DNA from: Chloroflexota bacterium
Lineage (GTDB): Bacteria; Chloroflexota; Limnocylindria; Limnocylindrales; CSP1-4
Length of the DNA stretch: 64,000 nt
Direction of reading: 5' to 3'
NCBI GenBank assembly: GCA_031369685.1
Contig: JANMPD010000099.1
Span: 3,076 to 67,075 of the forward strand
Both the position numbers and the translations under genes were made by a program. The notes under the pieces are model-generated. The model worked only from the letters and a program-made list of their open reading frames with translations, was not told the origin of the DNA and searched no databases. Of the stretch, positions 17,137-63,213 are shown in pieces (position 1 is the first letter of the stretch; the number at the start of each line of letters is the position of its first letter).

Positions 17137-17147
17137 CCCTTCGCGGC

Positions 17148-42764: not shown

Positions 42765-43928
42765 TCAGCCCCGCAGGGCCTCCCCGAGCGCCCCGACAAC
42801 GCGATCGACTTCGCCGTCGGTCAGATCCGGGTAGATCGGCAGCGAGATCTCCCGCTCGTATTCCCGGGTCGCCACGGAGAGGTCATCGGCTTCGTAGCCG
42901 TATGTTCGCCGGTAGTACGGATGGAGATGCAACGGGATGAAGTGGACGCTCGTCCCGATCCCCGCGTCACGCAAGCGCTCGATCACCGCCGCTCGCCGCT
43001 CCGCCCCGCCCTCCTTGAGCCGGACCGGGAAGAGGTGCCAGGCGTGGACTTCGCCCGGGATAGGTTCCATCGGCAGGTCGACCCAGTCCACGATCCCCGT
43101 CGATCGTATGCCGGCCGCGTATCGGACCGCGATCCGCTCCCGCGACAGTCGCATCGACTCCGCCCGCTCCAGTTGCACGATTCCGATCGCGGCAGCGAGG
43201 TCGGTCATGTTGTATTTGAATCCGGCGTCCTCGATCTCGTAGTACCAACTGCCAGCCGCGGTGTAACGCTTCCAGGCATCCCGGCTGATCCCATGCAGAC
43301 GCATCACCCGGGCTCGATCGGCGATTGCATCGTCATCGGTTACGAGCATCCCGCCCTCCCCGGTCGTCACCGTCTTCGTGGCGTAGAAACTGAGCGCCCC
43401 TGCGGTACCGATCGAGCCGGCAGCGCGACCGTTCCTCGAGGCGGGGAGCGCGTGGGCGGCATCCTCGATGACCGCGATCCCGCGGTCACGCGCGAAATCG
43501 ACGATGCCCTCCACGTCGGCCATGAGTCCGCCGAAGTGGACGACGATCAGCGCTTTCGTCGTCGGTCGCAATTGCGCCTCGACGGTCTCCACCGTCAGGT
43601 TCAGCGTCCGAGCGTCGACATCGGCGAGCCGCGGCCGTGCGCCGACATAGCGGACAACCTCGCCACAGGCCGCAAACGTATACGTGGGTACGATTACCTC
43701 GTCGGTCGGGCCGATGTGGAGCGCTTCGAGCGCCAGGTGGAGCGCCGCGGTCGCGGAGTTGACCGCTACGGCGTGTCGTGTCCCGACGGTCGAGGCGACA
43801 ACCTCCTCAAACGCCATCGACCGCTCGCCCGTCGTAAGCCAGCCCGAATCCAGGACCCGCAGTACGGCTTCTCGTTCAGGGGCTGTAATCGAGGGTCGAT
43901 GGAACGGGATGGCCGACGAGCCGGTCAT
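42765..43928 (-). CDS. DegT/DnrJ/EryC1/StrS family sugar aminotransferase (PglE-like)
   Basis: PLP fold-type I sugar aminotransferase. Lys in FYATKTVTTGEGG. 4-nt overlap with the upstream dehydratase. Confidence 0.9.
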   Translation of the reverse strand: MTGSSAIPFHRPSITAPEREAVLRVLDSGWLTTGERSMAFEEVVASTVGTRHAVAVNSATAALHLALEALHIGPTDEVIVPTYTFAACGEVVRYVGARPRLADVDARTLNLTVETVEAQLRPTTKALIVVHFGGLMADVEGIVDFARDRGIAVIEDAAHALPASRNGRAAGSIGTAGALSFYATKTVTTGEGGMLVTDDDAIADRARVMRLHGISRDAWKRYTAAGSWYYEIEDAGFKYNMTDLAAAIGIVQLERAESMRLSRERIAVRYAAGIRSTGIVDWVDLPMEPIPGEVHAWHLFPVRLKEGGAERRAAVIERLRDAGIGTSVHFIPLHLHPYYRRTYGYEADDLSVATREYEREISLPIYPDLTDGEVDRVVGALGEALRG

Positions 43929-45838
43929 CTCACAGTCGACTCCATCTCGGCTGAATTGGATGCAAGAACGCCCGAATGGGTCAGTTTCTCTCGCACGACC
44001 CGATTGTCCGCGGCCAGCGCGGCCACCTCCAGCTCGGCTACGAGCTCTCCAAGCGGCACCCGCATTGGCGGCCCCTTGAGGGGGATTGTGCGGAAGACGC
44101 GGTCATGCGTTGTCGGCCGAACGGTCTCGTGGTCGAACAGGAGAGTCTCATGGAGCCGCTCGCCGGGGCGCAGGCCCGTGAAGACTATTTCGACATCGCC
44201 CACGTCCAGCCCGGCCAGGCGGATCATGTCGGCCGCAAGCTCGACGATGCGGATCGGCTCGCCCATATCGAGGATGTAGACCTCGCCAGGAGTGGAGTCC
44301 GATCCGGCAAGCAAGATCAGGCCGACCGCTTCGGGGATCGTCATGAAGTAGCGAGTGGCGTCGGGGTCAGTGATCGTGAGAGGCAGCCCCTGCTCGAGTT
44401 GCCGCTGAAAGATTGGGACGACGCTGCCGCTGGACCCGAGCACGTTCCCGAATCGGACGGCGGTGTACGCACGGTTGTTGGCTTCAGCCGCCTCAACGGT
44501 GAGCAACTCCGCAAGTCGCTTTGTCGCGCCCATGATCCCGCTCGGTGCGACCGCCTTATCGGTCGAGATCAGGACCAACTGTCCAACACCTGTTGAGACG
44601 CAGGCATCGATGACATTTCGGGTTCCGACCACGTTCGTGAGGACGGCCTCGGATGGGAACGATTCGCAGATCGGGACATGCTTGAGAGCCGCCGCGTGAA
44701 ACACCACGTCGGCCTCCGAGGCGTTGATTGCCTGGAGGACGGCTGCCTTGGAACGAATGTCGAGAAGTTCTGCGTGGACCGTCGCCCCCCCGGGCCACGA
44801 TTGTTCTGCGAGGCTCCGTTCGATGGCCCATAGCGCAACCTCGCTGTTGTCGATGAGGGTGAGGCGCCTCGGACCAAGCGCCAGGATCTGTCGCGCCAGT
44901 TCGCCGCCGATCGATCCACCCGCTCCCGTTACAACGATGCTCGCGCCGTTCAGATAGGCCAGCAACTCGTCAGAGTTGCGAGTGGCTGGATCCCGACGAA
45001 GCAGATCATCCAAACTGACGGGTCGGATCCTCGCGAGGCGATCACCATTGCCGAGCAACTCCCGCAGATCCGGCACGATCTTGATGTCGAGGCCGAGGCC
45101 TCGGCCGCTTTCCACCGCTCGTCGCACGACCACGCCGGGGGCGGAGGGCATAGCAACGACGAGGAGCGTGGCTCCGGTCGCGCGAACCGCCTCCGGCATC
45201 CGCTCGAGTCCACCATATATTTTCGCGCCCAGCATCTGCGAGCCCCGTTTGGCGGCATCATCGTCGAGAAAGCCCACAACCTTTACCTGAACCGTCCGGT
45301 CATGCCGGGCCAGTCGTGCGATGGCAGCGCCCGCCTCGCCGGCTCCGTAAACAAGCGTGCGTACTTCTCTCGACTCGCGGTCTGACGCTCCGTTTGACCG
45401 AACTGCCTCGAGCATCGATCGAATGGCGAAACGGCCGCCCCCGATGAGCAGGAGATTGAGCATCGCCATAAGCGGGAAGAAGGATCGCGGCATCCCACTA
45501 GTCCCCGGAGCATCGACGGCTGCGAGAATCAAGAACGTCGCCGCCGCCAAGACGGACCCGGTACCGACAGCAGCCGCGATCCCGAGGAGTTCGCGAACCG
45601 ATGCATACCGCCATTCGCGACGATAGAGACCGAACATGACATTGACGATCGGTTGGATGGCCAAGGGAAGCAACGCGACCGGTAGATAGGGCCGCATCGA
45701 GGCGAGGACATCGCTGGCATCGAATCGCAGGGCAAACGCCCCAAGGATGGACAACCCCGTGACGGCGAGGTCGTATACGAACAGGTGTCGACCTCTGATC
45801 GCGAATCGGGGGGTTGCGGCCTGTTTGTCGCTCGGCAT
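43925..45838 (-). CDS. Membrane-anchored NDP-sugar 4,6-dehydratase (CapD/PglF/WbpM family polysaccharide biosynthesis protein)
   Basis: Four N-terminal TM helices. Two Rossmann domains (VVTGAGGSIGGELARQ). Start at MPSDKQ. The ORF extends to 46003. Confidence 0.85.
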   Translation of the reverse strand: MPSDKQAATPRFAIRGRHLFVYDLAVTGLSILGAFALRFDASDVLASMRPYLPVALLPLAIQPIVNVMFGLYRREWRYASVRELLGIAAAVGTGSVLAAATFLILAAVDAPGTSGMPRSFFPLMAMLNLLLIGGGRFAIRSMLEAVRSNGASDRESREVRTLVYGAGEAGAAIARLARHDRTVQVKVVGFLDDDAAKRGSQMLGAKIYGGLERMPEAVRATGATLLVVAMPSAPGVVVRRAVESGRGLGLDIKIVPDLRELLGNGDRLARIRPVSLDDLLRRDPATRNSDELLAYLNGASIVVTGAGGSIGGELARQILALGPRRLTLIDNSEVALWAIERSLAEQSWPGGATVHAELLDIRSKAAVLQAINASEADVVFHAAALKHVPICESFPSEAVLTNVVGTRNVIDACVSTGVGQLVLISTDKAVAPSGIMGATKRLAELLTVEAAEANNRAYTAVRFGNVLGSSGSVVPIFQRQLEQGLPLTITDPDATRYFMTIPEAVGLILLAGSDSTPGEVYILDMGEPIRIVELAADMIRLAGLDVGDVEIVFTGLRPGERLHETLLFDHETVRPTTHDRVFRTIPLKGPPMRVPLGELVAELEVAALAADNRVVREKLTHSGVLASNSAEMESTVR

Positions 45839-46083
45839 TGTGGTCAACGACACATGAACGCTTGCCCCCAAGTCCGATGGCCGCACAACGCAGCCATCTT
45901 GATCCGTGATCCAGGGGATTCTCGCGCGACCCCGATAAACAGGGTACCACTCGCGCTTGGCGACGAACGTCGTGACGACGGGCGAATACGGGGCCGACCG
46001 CAAGGGCGACCACGAATGGCCACCTGTGGACGCGACCGCCTTGCCCGAGACGCTGAGTTTGCTGTGCTAGACTCCGGCCCGAT

Positions 46084-47463
46084 TTGGAACCGCAAGACCG
46101 TACCCCTCACTCTGGCCGCTCCCAGTCGGCGACGGTCGCGACGTTCTTGTCGTTCGTCTGGCCGGGGCTTGGGCAACTCTATCTTGGCCGCCATCGCGCA
46201 GCCGCGGTGTTCGCCGCTCCATCGCTGGTAGTGCTTCTGGTCCTGCTGTACCTGGCACGCGACGGACTTGAGGTCCTCGTGGTCCGGCTGATCATCCCGA
46301 GTAGCATCACGATCGTCGTTGCCACAATCGTGGCCGCCGCGGCGTGGCGCTTGGCGTCGATGGCGGCAGCGTTCTACGCCGTGCGCCCAGAGCCCATCAG
46401 GAGTACACAAGGGAGACAGGCGCCGAGTTCGATACGCGGATCATCGGGGGCACGGCGGGTCCTCGCGATCCTGGCGCTTGTCGTGCTGGTATCGCACGGC
46501 CTCCTCGCCTGGGGCGGGCTCGCTTTACGCCATGCCGGATCCCAGATCTTCGTCGGTCTCAGCCCGACGAGCCAACCCTCCGACCAGCCGCTCGGTTCAG
46601 ACTCGGGTGGCCAGACCCACGAGCCGACCGTGACGCCAGTACCTGATGACTGGATCAATTTGTTGATGATCGGCGCCGACTCCGGGCTGGGCTATAACCA
46701 TGCCCTGACCGACACGATCATCGTCGTCAGCGTGAACGCGACGACGCAGCAAGCCGCGATGTTCAGCTTCCCGCGAGATATCGCAGGATTCGCGATGTAC
46801 GACGGCGGGGCGTATTCAGGGAAACTGAATTCCCTCATGTCATACGCTGACGCACGCCCCAGGGAGTTTCCAAATGGTGGCATCGCCACCTTGAAGAACG
46901 AGGTCGGGTTCCTGCTCGGCGTGCCGATTGACTACTACGCCTTTGTAAATCTGGCGGGGTTCACAACGATCATCGACGTTCTCGGAGGCGTCGATGTCGT
47001 CAATGACCGCGCGATAACCGATGCCGGCTATGAGTTTCCGGACCATAAGACAGGATTCTTCCTGACAGCGGGCCCTCACCACCTCGATGGCCGCACGGCC
47101 CTGGCGTATGTGCGCTCGCGCAATGGCCCTGGCGACAACGATTTCACGCGCGCCCGACGACAACAACAGGTGCTTCTGGCCCTGAGGGCGCACTTGACTG
47201 ATCCAGCGATGCTGCCCAAGTTCGTAACCGTCCTTGAAGCTGTTGCCAGGACCGTGCAGACGGACTATCCGGAGGCCCAGGCGCCAGACCTGCTCGTCCT
47301 GTCCAAGAAGGTGGAGGGCGGTTCGATCGACCAATTCGTGCTCGGCCCGCCGTATGCCGAACGTGACCCATCGAGCTCATCGTACCGATTGATCCTCGAG
47401 ATGAAGAAGGTGCGCGCCCTGTCAATCCGCATTTTCGGCCCGGCGTCCTCTTACGCCCCGTAA
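46084..47463 (+). CDS. LCP family protein (LytR-CpsA-Psr glycopolymer ligase)
   Basis: Two N-terminal TM helices and a Pro-rich linker. LCP core motifs (TDTIIVVSVNATT; FPRDI; RQQQVL). Confidence 0.85.
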   Translation: MEPQDRTPHSGRSQSATVATFLSFVWPGLGQLYLGRHRAAAVFAAPSLVVLLVLLYLARDGLEVLVVRLIIPSSITIVVATIVAAAAWRLASMAAAFYAVRPEPIRSTQGRQAPSSIRGSSGARRVLAILALVVLVSHGLLAWGGLALRHAGSQIFVGLSPTSQPSDQPLGSDSGGQTHEPTVTPVPDDWINLLMIGADSGLGYNHALTDTIIVVSVNATTQQAAMFSFPRDIAGFAMYDGGAYSGKLNSLMSYADARPREFPNGGIATLKNEVGFLLGVPIDYYAFVNLAGFTTIIDVLGGVDVVNDRAITDAGYEFPDHKTGFFLTAGPHHLDGRTALAYVRSRNGPGDNDFTRARRQQQVLLALRAHLTDPAMLPKFVTVLEAVARTVQTDYPEAQAPDLLVLSKKVEGGSIDQFVLGPPYAERDPSSSSYRLILEMKKVRALSIRIFGPASSYAP

Positions 47464-47474
47464 GCGAAGGTTCG

Positions 47475-48470
47475 CTAAGTGACGAGCCCGTAGAGGGAGT
47501 CGAGTTGGTCGACGACGACCTCGGCAGCATGATTGCGTTCAACCCACACGCGCCCTGCGATGGCTCGGCGTTGTCGGTTGGGTTCGTCATCGAGCAGCGC
47601 GACGACATGGTCGGCGCACTGCGCAGCCGTTGAGGCCTGGCCGATTGGCGCTGGACTCGCCAGAGGATTGGGGTGGCGAAGGTCCGCGATGACCGTGAGC
47701 CCGGTCGCCATCGCCTCCAACTCGTACTGGCTGAGAATGCCGAGGTTGAACTGGCCCAGTGTGACCCGGTGGCGCGCCAAGAAGCTCGGCATCTCATCGT
47801 GGGCCCGTGGGTCGACGAACACAACACGATCCCCGAGCCGTTCGCGAGCGACTCGGGCCAACGAACCTGAATTGATGACCGTAATGGTCGTCGATGGACG
47901 TCGTCGAAGGACTTCCGCCGCCGAATCGATCGCGACAATCGCCCCCTTCACCTCGTCCAACTTGACGCCAATCAGAAGGTCTCGATCGGCCTGGCGCGTC
48001 GGGGAGAATCGGTTTACGTCGATCGGGTTCGGCAGAAACACGGCATCTGGCCGGTAGTTTTCGATGTCACTCGCCAGGTCGGGCGTTGCGTAGAGAACGA
48101 TCGCGGCCCCACGCAGGACGAACGAGACGTAACGCCCCCAGGCTGAACGTGGGCTCAGGCCGCGGATGTCCGTGCCGTGACAGTGCACCACATAGGGACG
48201 CGATGTGAATATCCCGACGAGCGCCTGGGTCGCATAGTGAACGTGGACAAGGTCCACCCTTTCATGGCGGATCCGGGCTGCGGCGGCACCGATCGTCGCC
48301 ACGCGAAGTGGGGCAGCCGCCAGCTTCCACGGAAATGGAAGGTTCGCCCCGGGCTTGGCCGGATCGATGACGATCGCCCGCCTGCCGCGGCGACGCTGCT
48401 CGAGCGCAAGTGTTTCGGGAACCGAGGCGATGTCGTTCACATGCGCGACAGACAGGGCATTGTTGGACAC
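47475..48470 (-). CDS. Glycosyltransferase family 1/4-like
   Basis: GT-B fold hallmarks (HVHYATQALVG; E-x7-E-like region). Divergent from the GT2 gene. Confidence 0.6.
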   Translation of the reverse strand: MSNNALSVAHVNDIASVPETLALEQRRRGRRAIVIDPAKPGANLPFPWKLAAAPLRVATIGAAAARIRHERVDLVHVHYATQALVGIFTSRPYVVHCHGTDIRGLSPRSAWGRYVSFVLRGAAIVLYATPDLASDIENYRPDAVFLPNPIDVNRFSPTRQADRDLLIGVKLDEVKGAIVAIDSAAEVLRRRPSTTITVINSGSLARVARERLGDRVVFVDPRAHDEMPSFLARHRVTLGQFNLGILSQYELEAMATGLTVIADLRHPNPLASPAPIGQASTAAQCADHVVALLDDEPNRQRRAIAGRVWVERNHAAEVVVDQLDSLYGLVT

Positions 48471-48546
48471 GAACCGAGTATATGGAAATAATGCCGAAGC
48501 CTACCCTGCCACAGACCTGTGAACGCCATCAATTCATGGAGGATGC

Positions 48547-49605
48547 ATGCCCGATGCGGCCGGAGCAAACGGAGAGGTGCCTGTCGTAACCCTTCTGGTA
48601 GCGATGAGAAACGAGGCTGACAACATCGTGGCCTGCCTTGAGTCAATCAAGGCCCAGGATTATCCGGAAGCATTGATCGAAATCCTCGTGTTCGATGGCA
48701 ACTCCACGGACTCGTCTACGGAGATTGCCGAGCGCACCCTGGGGCGTCGCCCTCGCGCAAGCGTCCGTCCCAACCCGCGGCAGACCCAGGCTGCGGCATG
48801 GAATATCGGCATCGAGGCCGCCGCCGGCGACGTGATCGGCATTGTCAGCGGACACTCGATCCTCGCCCCGGACTATGTGCGCGCCGCCATCGAGGTACTG
48901 CGGCGCACTGGTGCGGAGATGGTTGGCGGTCCGGTCCGAGCGATCGCAACGGGACCCGTCGGCGAGGCGATCGCGCTCGCCGGGAGCACCTCCTTCGGCG
49001 TCGGGGGGGCAAGCTTCCACTATCTCGAGGAAGAACAGGATGTCGATACGGTCTATATGGGCCTGAGCCCCCGCGACGTGTACCGGCGCTTCCGTTTCGA
49101 CGAGGAGATGGTCCGCAATCAAGACGATGAGCTCAGCTACCGATTGCTGGATTCCGGTTTACGAATCGTATGCAGTCCCTTGATCCGGAGTGCGTACCGC
49201 TCGCGCGGCACCCTCCCCGGGCTCTGGAAGCAGTACTTCGCCTACGGCTCCTGGAAGGTCCGCGTTATGCAAAAACATCCGGCCCAGGTGCGACTACGAC
49301 ATATCGTGCCGACCACGTTCGTCTGTTCACTGATCGTCGGGGCCGCCGCCGCTTTGGCTTGGCGCCCGGCTGCTCTACTGCCAGTCGGCGTTCTCGCAGC
49401 CTATGGGATCGCAATGGCTCGCGCCATCGCAACCATTCGGCCGCAACCTCGGAGCTCGGTCCTACCGTGGCTACCGCCCGCCTACCTGACTGCGCATGCC
49501 GCCTACGGCCTTGGTGTGCTTGCGGGCCTGATCAGGCATCGTCATTGGGAGCATGGCAGCCTGCGCCTGATGCTCACCCAACTGGTCGCACGCGCCAGAA
49601 ACTGA
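48547..49605 (+). CDS. Glycosyltransferase family 2
   Basis: GT-A N-terminal domain (VTLLVAMRNEADNI; DGNSTD). C-terminal TM helices. Confidence 0.8.
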   Translation: MPDAAGANGEVPVVTLLVAMRNEADNIVACLESIKAQDYPEALIEILVFDGNSTDSSTEIAERTLGRRPRASVRPNPRQTQAAAWNIGIEAAAGDVIGIVSGHSILAPDYVRAAIEVLRRTGAEMVGGPVRAIATGPVGEAIALAGSTSFGVGGASFHYLEEEQDVDTVYMGLSPRDVYRRFRFDEEMVRNQDDELSYRLLDSGLRIVCSPLIRSAYRSRGTLPGLWKQYFAYGSWKVRVMQKHPAQVRLRHIVPTTFVCSLIVGAAAALAWRPAALLPVGVLAAYGIAMARAIATIRPQPRSSVLPWLPPAYLTAHAAYGLGVLAGLIRHRHWEHGSLRLMLTQLVARARN

Positions 49606-50269: not shown

Positions 50270-50271
50270 GA

Positions 50272-50946: not shown

Positions 50947-51031
50947 GCTTGCCAGGTCCTCATTGGGAATGCCAGCGGATCAGGCTACGATGGTATCGCC
51001 ACCCCGGCGGAACTGGGGATCAGCGGGACTC

Positions 51032-56123: not shown

Positions 56124-57347
56124 ATGACTTCGAATGACAACGCTCGCCGCCTCTGCGCTCGGTGCGTGTATGACGACGGGGTCCCCGGGATCGTCTTCGA
56201 CCGTGATGGCGTCTGCAACTATTGCGCGACACATGACGCCATGGAGCGTGAGTACCCGACGGGCGAACTTGGAGCTCGCGTCCTCGATAGCATCGTCGCC
56301 AAGATCAAGGTTGCTGGCAAAGGCAAGAAATACGATTGCGTGGTGGGCGTCAGCGGCGGCTGCGATTCATCATTCCTGCTTCACAAGATGGTCGAGATGG
56401 GCCTGAGACCTCTCGCCGTTCATTTCGACAACACGTGGAACTCGCCGATCGCAACCCAGAACATCTACAACGTTCTCGACAAGCTCGGCGTCGAGCTCGA
56501 CACGCTCGTCGTCAATTCGAAAGAGTACGACGACATCTATCGGGCGTTTCTTCTCGCAGGGGTCAAAGACGTCGAAGCGCCGACGGACATCGGGCTCGCG
56601 GCGACGATGTATCGCGCCGCTGAGAAGCATGACGTCCAGTACATCATCGAAGGGCACTCGTTCCGCACGGAAGGGATCGCGCCACTGGGCTGGATCTACA
56701 TGGACGGCAAATACATTTCGAGTGTCCACCAGCGTTATGGCACGCGACCGATGAAGACCTTCCCCAATCTCGGGCTGCAGGACTTCCTTCGCTGGGCGGC
56801 TGTAAAGCGGATCAAGCGCATTCGGCCGCTCTACTACCTCGACTACGACAAGGCGGCCGCAAAGGCATTCCTGAGTTCCGAACTGGGCTGGGTCTGGTAT
56901 GGCGGACACCATCTCGAGAACCGGTTCACGGCGTTCTGGCACACGTACTTTCTGCCCCAGCGCTACGGGATCGACGCGCGCCAACTCGGGCACGCGGCAC
57001 TGGTCCGGTCCGGCCAGCTCGATCGCAACGTCGCGATCGCCGAACTGGCTGAGCCCGTCGTGGCCGACAAGGAGATCGTCGCGCTGGTCCAGAAGCGCCT
57101 GGGTTTCTCCGACGAGGAGTTCAGGATGGTGATGACGTCGCCGCACCACAACTACTGGGACTTTCCCACCTACAAGGCGACATTTGAGCGGCTGCGGCCC
57201 CTGTTCTGGCTGCTCTACAGGCTCGATCGAGTCCCCAAGAGCTTCTATATGAAGTTCACCCTGCCCGACCCGGCCCGCACCGCGGCCTTGGCATCGCGAA
57301 CGGAACCGCTCCCCAATGTCGCATCACGTCTTCATCGGCCTGACTGA
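56124..57347 (+). CDS. N-acetyl sugar amidotransferase (PP-loop ATPase, WbuX/PseA-like)
   Basis: N-terminal zinc-ribbon CxxC...CxxC. PP-loop SGGCDSS. Confidence 0.8.
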   Translation: MTSNDNARRLCARCVYDDGVPGIVFDRDGVCNYCATHDAMEREYPTGELGARVLDSIVAKIKVAGKGKKYDCVVGVSGGCDSSFLLHKMVEMGLRPLAVHFDNTWNSPIATQNIYNVLDKLGVELDTLVVNSKEYDDIYRAFLLAGVKDVEAPTDIGLAATMYRAAEKHDVQYIIEGHSFRTEGIAPLGWIYMDGKYISSVHQRYGTRPMKTFPNLGLQDFLRWAAVKRIKRIRPLYYLDYDKAAAKAFLSSELGWVWYGGHHLENRFTAFWHTYFLPQRYGIDARQLGHAALVRSGQLDRNVAIAELAEPVVADKEIVALVQKRLGFSDEEFRMVMTSPHHNYWDFPTYKATFERLRPLFWLLYRLDRVPKSFYMKFTLPDPARTAALASRTEPLPNVASRLHRPD

Positions 57348-58617
57348 CGTCGCGGGATACTTCGGGAGCCTTGCCGACGGCTTCCGATCGCTCGGCGTGC
57401 CATGTACGGTCATCGATGAGTCGCCGGACTTTTACCAGTACCGGCGACTCACCGTCCACGGGCGGCTGGGTCGAGCCCAGGCGTACATGGGCGATCGTGC
57501 CGGACGCGGCCCCTTCCGCTTGGTCTGGGGTCTCGGGCTCCTCATGCTTCGGATGGTCAGGGTTCCGCTTCGTTTGTCCGCCCTGTTGGTCGCGTTGTAT
57601 CGCTGCGACGTCTTCATTTTCACATCGGGGGATGGGTTCCTGAAAGGGCTCGAGCTGCCTCTCCTCCAACGGTTGGGCAAGCGGATCATCTGGGTCTTCA
57701 CCGGATCCGATCATCGTCCGCCCTATCTGAATGGGCGCTATATCAGGAGGGCAGAGCGGGAAGGTTGGAACTATCTCGCTGCAGAGTCGGAGCGGATCGC
57801 GGCCCGCGTAGCCCGTGTGGAGCGCCACGCGGACGTGATCGTGGCCCACGCAGCGTCTGCACAATTCCACACACGCTCGTTCGTCGACTTTTTGGCACTC
57901 GGTATTCCGGTCCCGGTGGTTGGGTCAGTCGGCGAGGCCACGATCGACGACCAGTCGGCTTCGTCCGGCCGCGTTCGAATCATGCACTGTCCGTCCGACC
58001 TTGAGTCAAAGGGCACGGCAGCGATCCGAGGGGTCATTCACTCGCTGATTCGCGATGGCTTGCCCGTTGATTACGAGGAAGTCATGGGTCGCCCGCACGC
58101 CGAAGTACTGCAGGCACTGGGCAGAGCCGACCTCCTCGTTGATGAGGTCTACGGCGATACGCCGATGGGTGTGATCGCCAGCGAGGCCGCTGCGCATGGT
58201 GTTCCGACAGTCTGTGGTGGTTACTATGCGACCATAGTGGGCGCGCTTGGACGGGATGACGATGCTCCGCCGAGCCGGTTTGTCGCGCCGGAGGACCTTG
58301 AGGCGGCGATCCGTGAGCTTGTCGTCAATGGGAACGAACGCGCGGCGTTGGGCCGCGAGGCGAGGGCGTTTGTGACGCAGCGGTGGCGGCCCGAAGGGGT
58401 CGCAGAACGCTACCTGCGGCTCCTCGATGGGTCCGTACCTTCCACCTGGCTCCTTGATCCGAACGCTCTGGACTACATCGGCGGGTGGGGCATCAGCCAG
58501 ATTGAGCGACGGTCGGCCCTCGCCGCCTTCCTCGCTTCATGTGGTGGACAGGCACTCGCGCTCCCTCCGCACTCTCCGATTCGCGGCCGCGTCATGGCCG
58601 AGATCGCCGGCCTGTGA
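57316..58617 (+). CDS. Hypothetical protein, possible GT-B-fold glycosyltransferase-like
   Basis: The C-terminal half resembles the GT1 C-domain (GVPTVCGGY...). Atypical N-terminus. Overlaps the upstream gene by 32 nt, so the start is uncertain. Confidence 0.45.
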   Translation: MSHHVFIGLTDVAGYFGSLADGFRSLGVPCTVIDESPDFYQYRRLTVHGRLGRAQAYMGDRAGRGPFRLVWGLGLLMLRMVRVPLRLSALLVALYRCDVFIFTSGDGFLKGLELPLLQRLGKRIIWVFTGSDHRPPYLNGRYIRRAEREGWNYLAAESERIAARVARVERHADVIVAHAASAQFHTRSFVDFLALGIPVPVVGSVGEATIDDQSASSGRVRIMHCPSDLESKGTAAIRGVIHSLIRDGLPVDYEEVMGRPHAEVLQALGRADLLVDEVYGDTPMGVIASEAAAHGVPTVCGGYYATIVGALGRDDDAPPSRFVAPEDLEAAIRELVVNGNERAALGREARAFVTQRWRPEGVAERYLRLLDGSVPSTWLLDPNALDYIGGWGISQIERRSALAAFLASCGGQALALPPHSPIRGRVMAEIAGL

Positions 58618-59207
58618 AAACACCACGTGCAGTTGCGGTGATCGACGACATCTATCAATCGTTGCGAGCGACCATGCGTTCAGTCTGGGACCGCGACCTG
58701 CCCCTCGTTGAGCTGCTCTTCGACCGGTGGGAACGTGCACGCAGTCTTGGTTTCGGTGAGGCGTCCAGCGCGTACCACTTGAGCTATTTCTACGGCACGG
58801 TCAAGGTCGGCGCCAATGTCTGGATCGGCCCATACACACTCATCGATGGAAGCGGCGGCGGAGTCGACATCGGCGACTACTGCGTCATCAGCGCCGGGGT
58901 GCACGTCTACACCCACGACACGGTCGCGTGGGCAGTCTCGGCCGGCAAGGCTGAACACAAGCGGGCCCCGGTTTCGATCGAGGACTGCGTCTATGTCGGC
59001 GCGCAGACCGTGATCGCGATGGGAGTAAGGGTCGGTGCACATTCGGTGATCGGCGCGAACTCATTCGTGAACCGAGACATCCCGCCGTACTCCGTTGCCG
59101 CCGGGGTCCCGTGCCGGGTCATCGGACGAGTCGAAGTGTCCGAGGTCGGTACCGTTGAGCTCATCTACTCCGGGAGCGATCGTGCGCACGGAGTGGGCGA
59201 ACGCTGA
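58614..59207 (+). CDS. Hexapeptide-repeat (LbH) sugar O-/N-acetyltransferase (LacA/MAT/WbbJ-like)
   Basis: Left-handed beta-helix hexapeptide repeats (GANVWIGPYTLIDG...VGAHSVIGANSFV). GTG start overlapping the upstream stop. Confidence 0.8.
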   Translation: MKTPRAVAVIDDIYQSLRATMRSVWDRDLPLVELLFDRWERARSLGFGEASSAYHLSYFYGTVKVGANVWIGPYTLIDGSGGGVDIGDYCVISAGVHVYTHDTVAWAVSAGKAEHKRAPVSIEDCVYVGAQTVIAMGVRVGAHSVIGANSFVNRDIPPYSVAAGVPCRVIGRVEVSEVGTVELIYSGSDRAHGVGER

Positions 59208-59264
59208 TCCCGGCTACATTCGCCAGATCGTCCTCGGGCCACACGGGCCGGCCCGGCGATCGTG

Positions 59265-60647
59265 TCAATCGACCGCCGCATCGAGTTGCTCGGCCAGTGT
59301 TCGCGCAAGATTTCGTCGATCGAAGCGGCCTTCCGGGTCGGCACCGTCTCGCGACAGACGAGCGCTCAGGAGTCGGCGTAGGCCGCCGGCCACCCCCTCG
59401 GGCGTCGGGTCCGCAACGACCGACCAACCGAGCGAATTGAGCATGTTCCTCGCATCGCCGTCCGGCACGACGGCGAGCACGGGCAACCCAAGCCCGATGT
59501 AGTCAAACAGTTTGCCGCCAACGAACATCTTGCTGCCTGGGTCGTTCGCGAGAAGGTAGAGCGCGGCGTCGGCCCCGGCTGCGGCCGCCATCGCTTCGGA
59601 TCTCGACCTGTGACCGGAGAAGGTCACGACTGTGGAGAGTCGGGGGTCGGCCAGCCATTGCCGCGCCGTTGCCGAGCTCGCCTCGTCCATCCAGCCGATG
59701 AATTCGACGCGGAGCCGATCGATCGCATTGGCATCCCGGTCGAGAAACAGGGCGACGCCCGCGAGAAAAGTGTCGAGACCTTCCTTTCCGGCCGTGAGGC
59801 TGCCTCCGTAGACCAGCCTGAAGAATCGGTCGTCACGTGCTGCCGGCACGACGGTCCGGATTTCCTCGGCGTCATAGCCGTTGGTGATCGTCGTGATCTT
59901 CTCTGAGCTGGCGGGATAGCGGGCCCGCAACGCATCAGTCAATGACGGCGTCACTGACACGACGTGTGCTGCGTTGTCGATGATCCAGCGCTCCAGCCAC
60001 CGCTGGAGGCGTCGATACGGTCCCGGCAACGGTGGCAGAAGCGAGTTCCCGACCCACGGGTCCCGAAAGTCCGCCACCCACGCGAGGCCCGTGCGACGGG
60101 CAACCAGTCCCGCCACGATGTGTCCGGTGATCGCGGGTGAGGTCGAATAGATCGCCTGCGCCGGCCTCCGCCGGTGGGCTGACAAGGCAGACCGAACGGC
60201 AAACGGAATCCAGGTCAGATGCTCGTCCGGAAACAAGACGAGGGACGCGACCCGCGAGGCGCGACTCTGCCCAGGCCTCGGAGCGTTGGCCGACGTCGGC
60301 GCTCCATCCACCGCCGGGTCGGTACTCCCGGGTCGCCGGAGGCGCCCGAGGCGTTGAAGGCGCCGGTAGATCGGCCACCACGGTTCGAAGATGAAGCTCC
60401 GTTCGATCTCAATCCCGGGAGGTAGTTTCGCGATCGCCCCCTCATCCCGGATCTCGTAGCCCGGGTTCCGCGGGGTGATGACGACCGGTTGCCAGCCGTA
60501 GTCCGGAAGATAGCGGCTGAACGTGAGGGTCCTCTGGATGCCGGCCCCGCCGAGAGGCGGATAGAAATACGCCACCATCAGCAGCCGTCTGCGTTTCGGG
60601 GCTGCAGATTGCGGGGCCAGCTCAGACTCGAGCAACGATGTCGTCAT
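59265..60647 (-). CDS. Glycosyltransferase family 4
   Basis: GT-B N-terminal domain (LLMVAYFYPPLGGAGIQ) and C-terminal GT1 domain. Confidence 0.8.
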   Translation of the reverse strand: MTTSLLESELAPQSAAPKRRRLLMVAYFYPPLGGAGIQRTLTFSRYLPDYGWQPVVITPRNPGYEIRDEGAIAKLPPGIEIERSFIFEPWWPIYRRLQRLGRLRRPGSTDPAVDGAPTSANAPRPGQSRASRVASLVLFPDEHLTWIPFAVRSALSAHRRRPAQAIYSTSPAITGHIVAGLVARRTGLAWVADFRDPWVGNSLLPPLPGPYRRLQRWLERWIIDNAAHVVSVTPSLTDALRARYPASSEKITTITNGYDAEEIRTVVPAARDDRFFRLVYGGSLTAGKEGLDTFLAGVALFLDRDANAIDRLRVEFIGWMDEASSATARQWLADPRLSTVVTFSGHRSRSEAMAAAAGADAALYLLANDPGSKMFVGGKLFDYIGLGLPVLAVVPDGDARNMLNSLGWSVVADPTPEGVAGGLRRLLSARLSRDGADPEGRFDRRNLARTLAEQLDAAVD

Positions 60648-62244
60648 TTTTGAGCGGACCGGGGACTATGGGCTGGGCCCTCCGGGCGACCTCCGGTAGC
60701 GCGGCGACCAGGCCTATCAGCAGCCACAGGTATGGCTCCTCGAAGAGGCGCCCCTCGAATTGGCTTGCGACGAAGATTGAAGTGATCCCGAGGGTAATCG
60801 CGCCGGCAGCCCTCGCCACAGGAGGCGGCGCCCTTCGGGCTGACCAAACGACCCGGGCGAGTGCCACCGCAAGCAGGATGACGGTAAGGATCCCCGGGGT
60901 CCCGGTCTCGGCCGCGATTCGAATCAGCTCGGTATGAGGGAGCGATACGGGCGCGGAGATCCGATCCGCCGGAATGAAGTCCGCATAGGGCCCCAGGATT
61001 TGCGGCTGGAAACCGCCAATGCCGATACCCCAGAGCGGATGATCCAGATACATCGCGACGCCCGCCCTGGCAAGGTATCGTCGAACCGAATCGAGCGGCA
61101 TCCGGTCGATCACCGGGTCCATCCAGAGCGGGGGTCCGACGCTGCCATTGCCAACCTGCCCAGGCCGATTGGGGTTGTCTGGATTGTTCGGGTCGGTGAT
61201 CGCACCAATCGTGTCACCAACGTCCACAGCCGTCGACGTGACCCGAACCAGTACCGTCGCATTCACGACAAGGACGAGGGCGAACCCAAACAGGGCGGCT
61301 GCCACGGGCTTGAGAGCGCGCCCCCAGGGCCGAACGAACGCAACCCAAACGACCAGCGGAACGAGTGCCACCAGCCAACCAGCCCGCGACTGGGTCAACG
61401 CCTGTCCCGCGCCGATCATGGCCGCGGTCGCCATAAGCCCAATGAATGCCCGGCCGGACAATTCGCGCAGGATCGCAATCGCGGCAAGAACAGCCAGCAG
61501 CCCGAGTGACAGGAAGCGCGATGCTATGTTCGGGTCCGCGAACGTTCCATTGCGCCGCCCAAGGACATTGAGCGCCCCCTCGCGCCAAAGATAGAAGTCG
61601 AAGACCGACTCGGCGAGTAGGACGGCGGCCACAAACGCGGCACTCAAGATCAAGGCGATCGTGATGATCCGGAGCTGACGGACATCGCGAACCGTCTCGG
61701 CAACGAAGAACGCGAACACGGCGTACGTCGCCGTTGCGGCTTCAATCCTGATCCCGTTCGGCCAACGCGTCGCCGCGAGGCTGAGCCCAGCGACGGCGAT
61801 CACAATGATGATCGCCAGGACGATCGACCGCGGGACGGGAATCAACGTGCGACGCACCGACCGTACCGCCAGTGCCACGAACCCGGCGATCATCCCAAGG
61901 CGCGAGATCTCCAGTAACTCGACCGGAAACAGCTGCTTGGATAGCTCGAGCGGCAGGGTGAGGACGATCCCTACGAGGATGGCGAGATCCGGCTCTCGTC
62001 GTGCGGCGGACCAGATCCCGGCAGGGCTCGATATGACCAGGTGCCAGCCACGCGGCCAGCCGAGCGCGATGTCGCGACCCCGTAAGCCCACCATGCGACT
62101 CCACCAGCGATCGGGGGAACGGCGGGGTGACCCCCGAACCGCGTCCATCATACTGGGCCAATTGGTCCGCCACGCGATGGACCCGTCGGTGAATCCCATC
62201 GACTCTGGTAGTGTGCAGCGCGCATGACCCCCCGATGGCGCCAC
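60622..62244 (-). CDS. O-antigen ligase/polymerase-like membrane protein (Wzy_C domain)
   Basis: At least 10 TM helices. Large periplasmic loop with a Wzy_C-like region (TQSRAGWLVALV). Overlaps the GT4 start by 26 nt. Confidence 0.7.
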   Translation of the reverse strand: MAPSGGHARCTLPESMGFTDGSIAWRTNWPSMMDAVRGSPRRSPDRWWSRMVGLRGRDIALGWPRGWHLVISSPAGIWSAARREPDLAILVGIVLTLPLELSKQLFPVELLEISRLGMIAGFVALAVRSVRRTLIPVPRSIVLAIIIVIAVAGLSLAATRWPNGIRIEAATATYAVFAFFVAETVRDVRQLRIITIALILSAAFVAAVLLAESVFDFYLWREGALNVLGRRNGTFADPNIASRFLSLGLLAVLAAIAILRELSGRAFIGLMATAAMIGAGQALTQSRAGWLVALVPLVVWVAFVRPWGRALKPVAAALFGFALVLVVNATVLVRVTSTAVDVGDTIGAITDPNNPDNPNRPGQVGNGSVGPPLWMDPVIDRMPLDSVRRYLARAGVAMYLDHPLWGIGIGGFQPQILGPYADFIPADRISAPVSLPHTELIRIAAETGTPGILTVILLAVALARVVWSARRAPPPVARAAGAITLGITSIFVASQFEGRLFEEPYLWLLIGLVAALPEVARRAQPIVPGPLKNDDIVARV

Positions 62245-63213
62245 CTCATCCTCGCCGGCCTCCTGCCTGTCCTGCTGACGGCGTGCAGCCAGACAGATCC
62301 CTCGCCCACGGCGGTTCCGCCTACAGCCGGGCCACCGTCGGCGACCCCGTCACAGGGTCAAGTGCCGACACCTTCCGCGAGCCCGACGTCGTCGCCGTCG
62401 CCCACTGAATCGGTTGCCCTGAAGGATCGGCCATTCACGGTCCTCGTTCTCGGCGCCGATCTGGAAGGGCGTACCGATGTGATCATGGTCGTTGGCGTCG
62501 ACATCAAGTCGCGACGAATCTCATTCGCATCGATACCGCGGGACACCATCAACGTCCCATTGCCGAACGGTGGGACCTTCGCCGACAAGAAGATCAATTC
62601 CTTTTACAACTTTGCCGCTGCCAGACAATCGACATACCCACAGGGACCAGCCCGAGCAACGACGGAGCTTGTCGGCGGAATGCTGGGGATCAAGATCGAC
62701 TTCACCGCCCGGACCACGTTCAGAGGGTTCGAGGGCCTGACCGACGCAATGGGCGGGGTCGGCATCACCCTGACCAAGGCGGTCGTCGACCCGTCGTATC
62801 AGGTCACGACCAGGGACGTGGGCGTGTCCTTTCCGAAGGGTTCGCAGACGCTCACTGGCAAACGCGCCCTGATCTTTGTTCGCACGCGCGGCGGAGACAA
62901 CGACTTCGAGCGCCAACGGCGCCAGCAGGCGTTCCTCCTGGCCGCCGGGCGCCAGGTGCTCGCCAAACCGACCCTCGTCGTCGCCCTGCTTGCGGCGCAA
63001 GGCAATTTTCAAACTGACTTCCCGATCACGCAGATCCCGGACCTCATCGGGGCCATCGGCAAGATCGATGGCTGGACGATCAATCAGATCGTGCTCGGCC
63101 CGCGAACCTACGAATCGGCGGCGACGTGCACCTGCGGCTACGCCCTCGAACCGAAGCTGGATGCCATGCGCAAGCTGGCCAGAAGCTTCTATCCCTGGGC
63201 CGTGCTTCCCTGA
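62224..63213 (+). CDS. LCP family protein (second LytR-CpsA-Psr ligase), lipoprotein
   Basis: Lipobox LLTACSQ. PT-rich linker. LCP motifs (TDVIMVVGVD; IPRDT; RQRRQQAF). Confidence 0.85.
   Translation: MTPRWRHLILAGLLPVLLTACSQTDPSPTAVPPTAGPPSATPSQGQVPTPSASPTSSPSPTESVALKDRPFTVLVLGADLEGRTDVIMVVGVDIKSRRISFASIPRDTINVPLPNGGTFADKKINSFYNFAAARQSTYPQGPARATTELVGGMLGIKIDFTARTTFRGFEGLTDAMGGVGITLTKAVVDPSYQVTTRDVGVSFPKGSQTLTGKRALIFVRTRGGDNDFERQRRQQAFLLAAGRQVLAKPTLVVALLAAQGNFQTDFPITQIPDLIGAIGKIDGWTINQIVLGPRTYESAATCTCGYALEPKLDAMRKLARSFYPWAVLP

Follow-up and report, generated by a model that had tools for sequence, protein, structure and literature searches.

A Chloroflexota surface-glycan locus with a portable cassette predicted to make an acetamidino sugar

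Which glycan is made by a block of 18 genes that fills ~20 kb (positions 42765-63213) of DNA from an uncultured Chloroflexota bacterium, and which of its sugars might carry an acetamidino group, is the question raised by this locus. Pfam and NCBIfam profile searches of the 64-kb window (the whole stretch of DNA analysed) recovered in this block every gene class listed in the initial annotation, with the families stated there, and the locus appears to be a surface-polysaccharide cluster that should make a wall-anchored glycan with rare amino sugars. fabG lies upstream and an Nramp transporter downstream, the GC3 of the block (0.66-0.79) is below that of its flanks (0.80-0.89), and the entire locus is kept in a sister MAG (L001) at protein identities of 79-94%; the WbuX of the closest relative is 94% identical. 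A similar layout is seen in locus L081. Longest-ORF starts were too long for several genes, and the start codons of HisH, SDR2, PglF and LbH were re-set from domain starts and stop-start overlaps, which couple Wzx-HisH, SDR2-AT2 and PglF-AT1 (ATGA) and GT433-LbH (GTGA). No nucleotidyltransferase, PCP/Wzz chain-length regulator or tyrosine kinase was found within the locus.

Three of the genes form a putative amidotransferase trio:

52483-53094, forward strand: HisH-like glutaminase subunit, WbuY/AglY role (TIGR01855, 209 bits)
53084-53953, forward strand: HisF-like cyclase-fold subunit, WbuZ/AglZ/HisF2 role (NF038364, 301.7; cutoff 310)
56124-57347, forward strand: WbuX/NASAT-family N-acetyl sugar amidotransferase, a PP-loop ATP pyrophosphatase (TIGR03573, 229.9; cutoff 203.2)

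Assignment of the PP-loop protein to TIGR03573, as previously proposed, is borne out by a score above cutoff, the sole match in the NCBIfam search, and by both signature motifs, the SGGCDS PP-loop and the CARC...GVCNYC zinc tetracysteine, as defined for NASAT enzymes (PMC10607449). Its homologs exceed 5,500, many of them annotated as N-acetyl sugar amidotransferases. The trio could also be read as housekeeping histidine genes (HisH/HisF) next to an asparagine synthetase or tRNA-modifying enzyme, and the HisH-like protein, whose GLCLG cysteine and HPE (His-x-Glu) motifs are intact, does pass the hisH equivalog TIGR01855 (209 against a cutoff of 105.4). However, the HisF-like protein reaches only 179.1 on the true hisF model (TIGR00735, cutoff 294.6) and scores far higher as AglZ/HisF2 (301.7) and WbuZ (TIGR03572, 240.5), the PP-loop protein matches TIGR03573 only, the 64-kb window holds no hisA/B/C/D/G/I, no second hisH or hisF copy and no his operon, and the trio is linked across 64-71 related glycan loci. 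The histidine, asparagine synthetase or tRNA-modification reading is thus extremely improbable and is refuted as far as sequence analysis reaches, in agreement with the earlier reading of the HisH/HisF-like pair as WbuY/WbuZ-like subunits.

The trio is part of a portable cassette with four further genes:

53881-55002, reverse strand: AT2, DegT-family sugar aminotransferase (PF01041, 404 bits)
54999-55970, reverse strand: SDR2, extended SDR (PF01370, PF16363)
57316-58617, forward strand: GT433, divergent GT-B glycosyltransferase of 433 aa (AF2 model and Foldseek)
58614-59207, forward strand: LbH, sugar N-acetyltransferase of the Pcryo_0619 type (PF00132)

This cassette of SDR, aminotransferase, N-acetyltransferase, HisH, HisF, WbuX and glycosyltransferase spans at least six bacterial phyla. 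Co-occurrence was counted in 80 loci picked by similarity to the present WbuX, so that the counts describe one subclade and not the entire family: WbuX is accompanied by HisF and AT2 in 71 loci each, by HisH in 68, SDR2 in 67 and LbH in 57, and GT433 is present in 56 of 84 loci. The 80 loci span Chloroflexota, Actinomycetota (including cultured Microbacterium), Pseudomonadota, cyanobacteria, clostridia and Acidobacteriota, and the order SDR-AT-LbH-HisH-HisF-WbuX-GT433-Wzx is fixed in Methylotenera, L063, L013 and L044. A four-gene core, SDR-AT-LbH-GT433, occurs without the trio in the archaeon Methanoculleus and in the O-antigen locus of P. cryohalolentis.

LbH had been grouped with the PglF enzymes, a placement that the gene neighbourhoods do not support: WbuX is accompanied by LbH in 57 of the 80 loci and by PglF in one, and among characterised enzymes LbH comes closest to the Pcryo_0619 sugar N-acetyltransferase of Psychrobacter (48% identity; E 7e-42 to 8VR6, the next match being 5e-15; Foldseek TM 0.77-0.85 against 'Pcryo_0619 N-acetyltransferase' entries). 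Co-occurrence and this likeness together place LbH with the second SDR/aminotransferase pair and the amidotransferase trio. The GT433 ORF was not singled out in the initial annotation, and has no family match in Pfam or NCBIfam. Its AF2 model (pLDDT 92.7) matches the GT4-type enzymes HepE, PimA, MshA and BshA in Foldseek (probability 1.0, 11-17% identity), and GT433 is, on this modelled structure, a GT-B fold glycosyltransferase that travels with the cassette. A homolog adjoins Pcryo_0619 (E 1e-59), that of Methanoculleus is 41% identical, and relatives comprise 1,318 cluster representatives at E<=1e-30; GT433 is proposed to be the dedicated transferase of the cassette sugar.

What sugar the cassette makes depends on SDR2, which, judged from its sequence, should form a 4-keto sugar either as a LegB-like 4,6-dehydratase or as an oxidative C6-decarboxylase. 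The second SDR dehydratase/aminotransferase pair described previously is of the two families stated, but SDR2 may be a decarboxylase and not a dehydratase. AT2 matches the solved structures of perosamine synthase (259), 9BGP (253), 8VR3, an aminotransferase of Psychrobacter (237), and ArnB (233), and shares 36.5% identity with the aminotransferase of the Psychrobacter cassette and 46.5% with its Methanoculleus counterpart; SDR2 (motifs GAGFIG, SSSEAYG, YAASK and TRDF) shares 30% identity with 8VR2, the SDR of Psychrobacter, and 52% with that of Methanoculleus. An ArnA/UXS-type decarboxylation of a UDP-hexuronic acid from a pathway encoded elsewhere in the genome, tentatively entertained here as the less probable reaction, would make the cassette sugar a 4-acetamido or 4-acetamidino 4-deoxy-pentose of the Ara4N type and would resemble the end of the proposed route to 2,3,4-triacetamido-2,3,4-trideoxy-L-arabinose in Psychrobacter. 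The O-antigen of P. cryohalolentis includes triacetamido-arabinose (PMC8040287), and its four-gene module (SDR, AT, LbH = 8VR6 and GT433 homolog) directly follows WbpA-B-D-E; Psychrobacter proteins are 48% (LbH) and 37% (Wzx) identical to the present ones, and SDR2-class and Psychrobacter-class SDRs stand in for one another at a single position of cassettes that are identical in other respects. The Psychrobacter SDR is itself taken as a decarboxylase from gene order and glycan chemistry, however, and SDR2 scores about half as high as that enzyme on the UXS-type (58.7 against 113.5) and ArnA (51.5 against 83.8) models but higher on LegB (183 against 134), with 199 on RmlB. SDR2 also differs from the Psychrobacter class in a motif that reads TRDF instead of IRAW; in UXS enzymes it is TRAF. 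The Ser-Glu pair of SDR2 (SSSE; Ala or Thr in simple epimerases), the nucleotide-sugar 6-dehydrogenase adjoining Microbacterium cassettes, and the partial redundancy of a second 4,6-dehydratase pathway alongside PglF again favor decarboxylation, whereas no 6-dehydrogenase is found in the 64-kb window, weak evidence since such a gene lies within 10 kb in just 4 of the 15 Psychrobacter-class loci. 4,6-Dehydration by SDR2 is favored.

A second sugar module, with its putative initiating transferase, is encoded apart from the cassette and is listed here with the methyltransferase gene that follows the transferase:

42765-43928, reverse strand: AT1, DegT-family PLP sugar 4-aminotransferase (PF01041, 400.8 bits)
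43925-~45838, reverse strand: PglF/WbpM-like membrane-anchored UDP-HexNAc 4,6-dehydratase (PF02719, Polysacc_synt_2, 345 bits; PF13727, CoA_binding_3)
49574-50269, reverse strand: SAM-dependent methyltransferase (PF08241, PF13649)
50272-50946, reverse strand: small monotopic phosphoglycosyl transferase (PGT) of PglC-like size, 224 aa (PF02397, Bac_transf, 158.6 bits)

The PglF-like dehydratase, AT1 and small PGT of the bacillosamine-type set proposed initially are all present, and no dedicated PglD-type acetyltransferase accompanies them. The PglF-like protein, which probably starts at 45838 (the longest ORF reaches 46003), has ~4 N-terminal hydrophobic segments and the motifs GAGGSIG, STDKA and MGATK, and shares 35-40% identity with a PglF-like gene of L085, the P. 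cryohalolentis locus; this gene is probably 0612 in PMC8040287. AT1, its predicted partner, has the Schiff-base lysine motif SFYATK and scores 349 on the PseC and 335 on the ArnB HMM, both under cutoffs; with ArnB (283 bits), perosamine synthase (241) and the pneumococcal aminotransferase 6EWJ (209) as closest solved relatives, it belongs to the DegT family as stated but is not PglE-like specifically. At C4 its product may have the stereochemistry of either the bacillosamine or the AAT-Gal type. The PF02397 match spans almost the entire PGT, which has a single N-terminal hydrophobic helix (residues 8-26), a DELPQ dyad and a PRP motif, and is predicted to start the repeat on polyprenyl phosphate. 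The methyltransferase lies directly downstream, its GTG start a few bases past the PGT stop, and the GT2-MT-PGT neighbourhood is also kept in L081 and L083. As a PglD-type enzyme LbH was rejected (TIGR03570, 52.6 against a cutoff of 160.8).

The acetamidino group could instead sit on the diamino-trideoxyhexose made by PglF and AT1, or on a different HexNAc of the repeat, and not on the cassette sugar, close to the picture in the initial annotation. Family members do vary in target (WbpG acts at C3 of ManNAc3NAcA and WbuX at C2 of L-FucNAc; PMC10607449), and 58-67% identical WbuX homologs are also found in loci that have Wbp-type genes and, as neighbour, an SDR of an epimerase-like class. However, of the 80 loci of this WbuX subclade one contains PglF and 12 contain the PGT, whereas AT2, SDR2 and LbH are present in 57-71 and directly adjoin HisH-HisF-WbuX, so that amidination outside the cassette sugar appears unlikely.

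The remaining genes would assemble, export and attach the glycan:

46084-47463, forward strand: LCP1, LytR-CpsA-Psr glycopolymer phosphotransferase (PF03816, 114 bits)
47475-48470, reverse strand: GT4-type (GT-B) glycosyltransferase (PF13439, PF13579, PF13524)
48547-49605, forward strand: GT2 glycosyltransferase (PF00535, 75.9 bits)
50909-52486, forward strand: Wzx-type flippase (PF13440, PF01943)
59265-60647, reverse strand: GT4-type glycosyltransferase, 460 aa (PF13439, 58.6 bits; PF13579)
60622-62244, reverse strand: Wzy_C-domain membrane protein (PF04932, 61.8 bits)
62224-63213, forward strand: LCP2, LytR-CpsA-Psr phosphotransferase, predicted lipoprotein (PF03816, 102 bits)

The Wzx, Wzy-like and two LCP genes reported earlier are thus present. 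LCP1 has N-terminal TM helices and LCP2 an LTAC lipobox (residues 18-21); they are 34% identical, and score 102.7 and 84.9 on TIGR00350 (cutoff 62.3). The GT2 has C-terminal hydrophobic (TM) segments at 253-295, and Wzx, a multi-pass membrane protein, is 37% identical to the Wzx adjoining the Psychrobacter module. LCP enzymes are also able to glycosylate proteins. The Wzy_C protein (~10 hydrophobic segments, a ~100-aa loop; no match in NCBIfam or PDB sequences) is a candidate repeat-unit polymerase, or possibly a ligase/O-oligosaccharyltransferase. If it were the latter (PglL/WsaB/WaaL-like), the product would be a short glycan on a surface or S-layer protein rather than a peptidoglycan-linked polymer, as might be argued from PF04932, its sole match and a domain that also spans WaaL/PglL-type ligases, from the missing chain-length regulator, and from the predicted reducing-end diamino-trideoxyhexose, a typical feature of protein-linked glycans in Neisseria and Campylobacter. 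Against this, both LCP genes fall inside the low-GC3 block or on its border and are kept with it in L001, and the locus encodes no protein that would be a candidate acceptor. LCPs provide the usual route of wall attachment in monoderm-type envelopes (PMC7831098), and their wide distribution in Chloroflexi is already known (PMC2632651). Protein glycosylation is accordingly considered improbable.

A Wzx-dependent surface-glycan locus with two sugar-making modules, in which one LCP or both most likely link the product to peptidoglycan, is therefore the reasonably probable explanation; substrates, amidino position, polymerisation and peptidoglycan acceptor we infer as follows. The PglF-like protein and AT1 would convert UDP-GlcNAc to UDP-2-acetamido-4-amino-2,4,6-trideoxyhexose, and the PGT would put this sugar-1-phosphate on polyprenyl phosphate as the first residue. 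Since the locus has no dedicated PglD-type acetyltransferase, the 4-amine may stay free, be methylated, or receive an acetyl group from the cassette enzyme. SDR2 would oxidise a nucleotide sugar to a 4-keto intermediate, by the favored 4,6-dehydration of UDP-HexNAc or UDP-Hex or alternatively by oxidative decarboxylation of a UDP-uronic acid, AT2 would aminate C4, and LbH would N-acetylate the amine. The PP-loop of the NASAT would then adenylate the acetamido carbonyl with ATP, HisH would free ammonia from glutamine for delivery by the HisF-like barrel, and the acetamido oxygen would be swapped for ammonia to give the acetamidino group; the target could be the N-acetyl group of another residue. 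GT433 would move the cassette sugar onto the lipid-linked repeat, the two GT4s and the GT2 would attach further residues, one decorated by the methyltransferase, and Wzx would flip the unit for polymerisation by the Wzy_C protein and transfer to the wall by the LCPs. A zwitterionic product, suggested earlier, is unsupported because the locus has no gene for an acidic constituent; the glycan is predicted instead to be cationic. It probably bears a positively charged acetamidino group on one sugar, made by a cassette common to many phyla.

The boundaries and gene classes that the initial annotation assigned to the glycan locus stand, because Pfam and NCBIfam scans of long ORFs recover 18 genes at 42765-63213. 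Gene starts were trimmed using domain starts and ATGA/GTGA stop-start overlaps, by which those of HisH (52483), SDR2 (55970), PglF (near 45838) and LbH (58614) were re-set. The features, in order along the window, are:

Upstream flank: type II fatty-acid synthesis cluster, accD, accA, accC, fabZ, fabF, accB, fabH, fabG
Locus from 42765, first half: DegT aminotransferase AT1, PglF-like membrane SDR, LCP1, GT4, GT2, methyltransferase, 224-residue Bac_transf phosphoglycosyl transferase (PGT), Wzx, HisH-like protein
Locus to 63213, second half: HisF-like protein, DegT aminotransferase AT2, extended SDR (SDR2), TIGR03573 amidotransferase WbuX (56124-57347, + strand), 433-residue ORF GT433 (57316-58617), LbH acetyltransferase, GT4, Wzy_C protein, LCP2 (62224-63213)
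Downstream flank: Nramp transporter

The G+C content of the window is ~68% and dips to 62-65% at ~44-63 kb; GC3 per gene is 0.66-0.79 from the PglF-like gene to LCP2 and 0.80-0.89 in the flanks. No tRNA genes were found flanking the block. The nearest genomic locus is in a sister Chloroflexota MAG, whose WbuX is 94% identical and in which 16 of the 18 proteins are 79-94% identical, the exceptions being AT1 and PglF; remaining close matches are from Chloroflexota or named Candidatus Limnocylindria. The gene order of the upstream fatty-acid cluster is itself unusual, with a calcineurin-like metallophosphoesterase (38091-38906) between fabZ and fabF and a biotin carboxyl carrier protein (40150-40755) between fabF and fabH, and the split accD/accA type is also there. 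Elsewhere in the window, ORFs of 210, 363 and 391 residues follow one another at 880-3649 on the minus strand with coding-like GC3 and no Pfam match at E<=1e-5, and two flavin amine-oxidase-like genes (13645-17102) precede a 952-residue regulator (17115-19973) that carries an AAA_16 ATPase domain at its N terminus and LuxR/GerE at its C terminus.

The N-acetyl sugar amidotransferase (NASAT) family is defined by a PP-loop SGGxDS and a tetracysteine CxxC...[GN]xCxxC motif (PMC10607449). WbuX has both, i.e. SGGCDS at residue 77 and CARC...GVCNYC at residues 11-34, and scores 229.9 bits against a cutoff of 203.2 on TIGR03573, its sole NCBIfam match, so that its sequence places it in the WbuX/WbpG/PseA group as first proposed; its predicted function is the conversion of a sugar acetamido to an acetamidino group. 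A phmmer search of WbuX against solved structures gave no match, and it is therefore distant in sequence from the Legionella enzyme LpNASAT. The HisH and HisF partners belong to the same locus, 3 kb upstream of WbuX. The HisH-like protein keeps its catalytic Cys and His-x-Glu motifs, and the HisF-like protein, although below every cutoff, is clearly nearer the AglZ/HisF2/WbuZ paralogs (301.7 against 310 on NF038364, 8 bits short; 240.5 against 299.7 on TIGR03572) than true hisF (179.1 against 294.6). A role of this pair in histidine biosynthesis, which the initial annotation had named as a refuting condition, is at the sequence level refuted by the failed hisF model and the lack of his genes: tblastn with both proteins found no second HisH or HisF copy in the whole 64-kb window, and scans of the remaining genes found no his operon or other his gene in the 64 kb, those genes being thrA/thrC/thrB-like, an aspartate kinase, a glycine-cleavage T protein, transporters and a LuxR-type regulator. 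The HisF-like ORF is 289 residues long (homolog median 257), and its tail, rich in Pro, Ser and Thr, shares 73 nt (53881-53953) with the 3' end of AT2, which is transcribed toward it; the two genes share only 4 nt in the sister MAG. The longer tail may mean that a stop codon has been lost or that the assemblies differ.

The neighborhood of this amidotransferase is widely conserved. When 80 loci containing relatives of the window's WbuX, taken with 10 kb on each side, were compared with the 18 locus proteins, AT2 and HisF each recurred in 71, HisH in 68, SDR2 in 67 and LbH in 57, as against 12 for the PGT and only 1-2 for PglF and the LCPs. All-against-all ORF clustering finds the GT433 family in 56 of 84 loci. 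The order SDR, aminotransferase, LbH, HisH, HisF, WbuX, GT433 is found in Methylotenera mobilis 13 and three other loci (L063, L013 and L044), with Wzx next in three of the four. Hosts of this seven-gene cassette include Chloroflexota, Actinomycetota, Pseudomonadota, cyanobacteria, clostridia and Acidobacteriota, and cultured carriers of the window-class cassette include Microbacterium sp. CJ88, EST19A and K24 (Actinomycetota), Methylotenera mobilis 13 and Andreprevotia chitinilytica DSM 18519. A four-gene core of SDR, aminotransferase, LbH and GT433, without the amidotransferase trio, is present in the archaeon Methanoculleus (SDR 52%, aminotransferase 46.5% and glycosyltransferase 41% identical to the window's) and in the O-antigen locus of Psychrobacter cryohalolentis. 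On the basis of co-occurrence (the 57 loci of 80), shared order and this standalone core, LbH belongs to the cassette, and not with the PglF set to which it was at first attached. No NeuB-like family occurs among the ORF clusters of the 84 loci, and their interpretation as legionaminic or pseudaminic acid clusters was rejected.

Other components recur around the cassette in the 84 loci: a Gfo/Idh/MocA oxidoreductase, a nucleotide-sugar 6-dehydrogenase, WecB, AsnB and a formyltransferase. The AsnB-like glutamine amidotransferase, of 630-670 residues, adjoins SDR-AT-LbH-GT433 in the Methanoculleus sp. FWC-SCC1 locus (7353-13370), the P. cryohalolentis locus (13375-15267) and 15 others; it is also a neighbor in loci without WbuX, HisH and HisF, the window has no such gene, and it might supply an alternative amidation function. 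In four proteobacterial loci (L056, L057, L063 and L037, at ~4.3-5.9 kb in locus coordinates) a second LbH gene and a Gfo/Idh/MocA oxidoreductase lie directly upstream of the SDR of the window's class with overlapping gene ends; the top NCBIfam model for this oxidoreductase is UDP-GlcNAc 3-dehydrogenase at 152 bits, under the cutoff, and this may point to an additional 3-amino step in these hosts. An Actinomycetota MAG (L022, 8.9-16.1 kb) carries two WbuX and two HisH genes, with one HisF detected, in ~7 kb and on opposite strands.

The closest structurally characterized counterpart of the core is the P. cryohalolentis K5T module Pcryo_0617-0620 (8VR2, 8VR3/8VR5, 8VR6/7/M), in which SDR (8VR2), aminotransferase (8VR3), LbH N-acetyltransferase (8VR6) and a GT433 homolog are contiguous in the same order and are followed by Wzx. 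Aminotransferase and Wzx are 36.5% and 37% identical to those of the window, and the gene adjoining Pcryo_0619 encodes a full-length GT433 homolog (27% identity, E 1e-59). The module differs in coming after WbpA, WbpB, WbpD and WbpE, in lacking WbuX, HisH and HisF, and in its host, a diderm that makes O-antigen. Pcryo_0619 bears directly on the LbH protein (ACETYLTRANSFERASE), for which NCBIfam puts O-acetyltransferases first and the PglD/NeuD/VioB model TIGR03570 gives 52.6 against a cutoff of 160.8. The closest solved relative of LbH is 8VR6 (E 7e-42; runner-up 5e-15), identified as a P. cryohalolentis protein by a search with its aligned sequence; Pcryo_0619 is 48% identical to LbH and occupies the same SDR-AT-LbH-GT433 neighborhood. 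A predicted LbH model (pLDDT 90.6) matches the Pcryo_0619 N-acetyltransferase entries in Foldseek with TM 0.77-0.85, rmsd 2.2 A and 42% identity. Since Pcryo_0619 is by far the closest relative and its own NCBIfam profile is similarly ambiguous, the O-acetyltransferase ranking was set aside, and LbH is best read, by sequence and model, as a predicted sugar N-acetyltransferase of the Pcryo_0619 type.

The reaction of SDR2 determines which sugar the cassette would make. SDR2 scores 199 against a cutoff of 365 on the RmlB model and 183 against 475 on LegB, and has SSSE and YAASK motifs that are also common to decarboxylases. Three motif classes can be told apart among the SDRs adjoining WbuX: the window class (S-S/T-S-E, YAAxK, Q-T/S-R-D-F; 40-100% identical to SDR2), the Psychrobacter class (STSEVFG, YAVSK, QIRAWC; 26-31% identical) and an epimerase-like class. 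Although PelX is the top PDB match, the Ser-Glu pair excludes a plain 4-epimerase. The same pair, however, is common to dehydratases and decarboxylases, and its presence in SDR2 is compatible with an oxidative decarboxylase, as is the fact that window and Psychrobacter SDR classes occupy one slot in otherwise identical cassettes. The O-antigen of P. cryohalolentis contains 2,3,4-triacetamido-2,3,4-trideoxy-L-arabinose (PMC8040287). By chemical logic its SDR, with its different motifs (STSEVFG/YAVSK/IRAW) and 30% identity to SDR2, should oxidize and decarboxylate UDP-GlcNAc3NAcA. Lack of a 6-dehydrogenase had appeared to argue against a decarboxylase in the window, but the point was dropped: in each class a minority of comparable size has the enzyme within 10 kb (12/43 window-class and 4/15 Psychrobacter-class loci). 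Against decarboxylation, the SDR2 class reaches only about half the Psychrobacter-class scores on the decarboxylase models (58.7 vs 113.5 on UXS-type, 51.5 vs 83.8 on ArnA) and scores higher on LegB (183-204 vs 134). Decarboxylation by SDR2 is thus possible but somewhat doubtful, and there is roughly an even chance that its sequence denotes a LegB-like 4,6-dehydratase.

The glycosyltransferase of the cassette has escaped profile-based annotation: no Pfam or NCBIfam model matches GT433, and a precomputed Pfam domain is likewise lacking for each of the 100 homologs nearest to it. An AlphaFold model from 52 sequences (pLDDT 92.7, pTM 0.92) nevertheless matches HepE, PimA, MshA and BshA (GT-B/GT4) in Foldseek at probability 1.0, with only 11-17% identity, and the GT433 profile weakly touches the C-terminal region of PglA and PimB. 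Residues D281 and E290 are invariant. When 1.84 billion cluster representatives were searched with the profile, 1,318 matched at E<=1e-30 and 6,251 at E<=1e-3. The modeled fold places GT433 with the GT-B (GT4-like) glycosyltransferases, and its linkage leads us to propose it as the transferase dedicated to the cassette sugar.

Taken to its full extent, the proposal is that SDR, aminotransferase, N-acetyltransferase, HisH, HisF, NASAT and GT433 form a self-contained, horizontally mobile unit that would make, amidinate and transfer one chemically undescribed sugar, a 4-acetamidino-4,6-dideoxyhexose or 4-acetamidino-4-deoxypentose; that GT433 represents an unrecognized dedicated GT-B family of ~1,300 or more 50%-identity clusters; and that in Chloroflexota the unit would feed an LCP-anchored, net-cationic wall polymer, an envelope type not yet characterized there. 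As a joint statement this is tentative and rather unlikely to hold in every part.

A second sugar is expected from the first module of the locus, that of the PglF-like dehydratase, AT1 and the PGT. The PglF-like protein (PF02719, 345 bits, and PF13727; ~4 hydrophobic segments) has the STDKA and MGATK motifs, and is classed as a PglF/WbpM-type UDP-GlcNAc 4,6-dehydratase by its S-T-D-K motif, Met in place of the SDR Tyr and N-terminal membrane domain. Its score on the PseB equivalog is 184.6 against 407.75, and by that model it is therefore not of the inverting PseB type. Its stop codon overlaps the start of AT1, which was initially labeled PglE-like and is in fact closer to ArnB, perosamine synthases and the pneumococcal aminotransferase 6EWJ. 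The PGT has PF02397 at residues 8-190, a single hydrophobic helix at 8-26 and the Asp-Glu dyad in DELPQ, and is classed from these features as a minimal, PglC-like small monotopic phosphoglycosyl transferase. No PglD-type acetyltransferase was found in the locus with TIGR03570. On the basis of the PglF-like motifs and the AT1 and PGT families, the sugar of this module is thus predicted to be a 2-acetamido-4-amino-2,4,6-trideoxyhexose of either C4 configuration.

Wzx, the Wzy_C protein and the two LCPs fit a Wzx/Wzy route that would end in LCP-mediated transfer to peptidoglycan. The Wzy_C protein has ~10 hydrophobic segments and a PF04932 domain (61.8 bits) that does not separate polymerases from ligases; it has no match in PDB sequences or NCBIfam, and no chain-length regulator was found in the locus. 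LCP1 and LCP2 score 102.7 and 84.9 against a cutoff of 62.3 on TIGR00350, and LCP proteins have previously been catalogued across Chloroflexi (PMC2632651). LCP1 has several N-terminal TM helices and LCP2 an LTAC lipobox. The two are thus unlike in anchoring and are only 34% identical; in LCP2 a long linker rich in Pro, Ser and Thr comes after the lipoprotein signal (LLTAC). Genes for a nucleotide-sugar 6-dehydrogenase, a pyruvyl transferase and a glycerol- or ribitol-phosphate transferase are all absent from the locus. The predicted product would be cationic through its amidinium group and possibly also a free amine; the zwitterionic character that the initial annotation had thought possible finds no support in the locus itself, which has no acidic-group gene.

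Each part of the locus has known counterparts. It shares a PP-loop and tetracysteine amidotransferase with HisH- and HisF-like partners with E. coli O145 (WbuX/Y/Z), P. aeruginosa O5 (WbpG-HisH2-HisF2), M. maripaludis (AglX/Y/Z) and Legionella (LpNASAT) (PMC10607449), but unlike these acetamidino systems has no FnlABC (FucNAc), WbpABDE (ManNAc3NAcA) or NeuB-type synthase (Leg/Pse). The membrane PglF-like dehydratase (STDKA/MGATK), translationally coupled DegT aminotransferase and ~220-residue monotopic PGT with a DE dyad resemble the Campylobacter and Neisseria pgl (PglF-PglE-PglC) and AATGal priming sets (pneumococcal and Bacteroides fragilis AATGal genes), from which the locus differs in its AT1, less near PglE, and in lacking a PglD/NeuD-type acetyltransferase and a PglB-type oligosaccharyltransferase. 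Monoderm Wzy-dependent capsule and secondary wall polysaccharide loci with LCPs (CpsA/TagTUV) likewise combine a PGT, several GTs, Wzx, a Wzy_C protein and LCPs in one variable, lower-GC block; here, in contrast, a CpsC/CpsD-type chain-length/tyrosine-kinase pair is missing, the LCPs number two, of which one is predicted to be a lipoprotein, and the bacterium belongs to the Chloroflexota. WbuX-HisH-HisF clusters within polysaccharide loci have been described, e.g. in Sphingomonas, where cluster B for a cell-associated polysaccharide brings together a WbuX-family amidotransferase, AglZ/HisF2, HisH, SDR, aminotransferase, acetyltransferase, GT4s and Wzy, and adds a nucleotide-sugar dehydrogenase, an MviM dehydrogenase, an AsnB-like amidotransferase and Wzc, i.e. 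a Wbp-type uronic-acid route, all missing from the window (PMC11340318).

Every component of the locus is therefore from a known family. New here are the definition of a seven-gene cassette with a four-gene core, the attribution to it of a GT-B family that lacks a profile model, the connection with Psychrobacter enzymes of solved structure, and the occurrence of a locus of this kind, LCPs included, in Chloroflexota. Current understanding is not overturned; rather, a known pattern is filled in. The recurrent cassette, including a GT family without a profile model, would tie the making of acetamidino groups to one particular 4-amino sugar pathway. To our knowledge the envelopes of soil Chloroflexota are almost unstudied, and the locus, if correctly interpreted, would provide the first concrete genetic model of a peptidoglycan-linked glycopolymer in these bacteria. 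Glycans bearing amidinium groups are strongly cationic, and such a polymer should therefore influence how phages adsorb, how metals are bound and how the cell interacts with the surfaces of hosts or soil.
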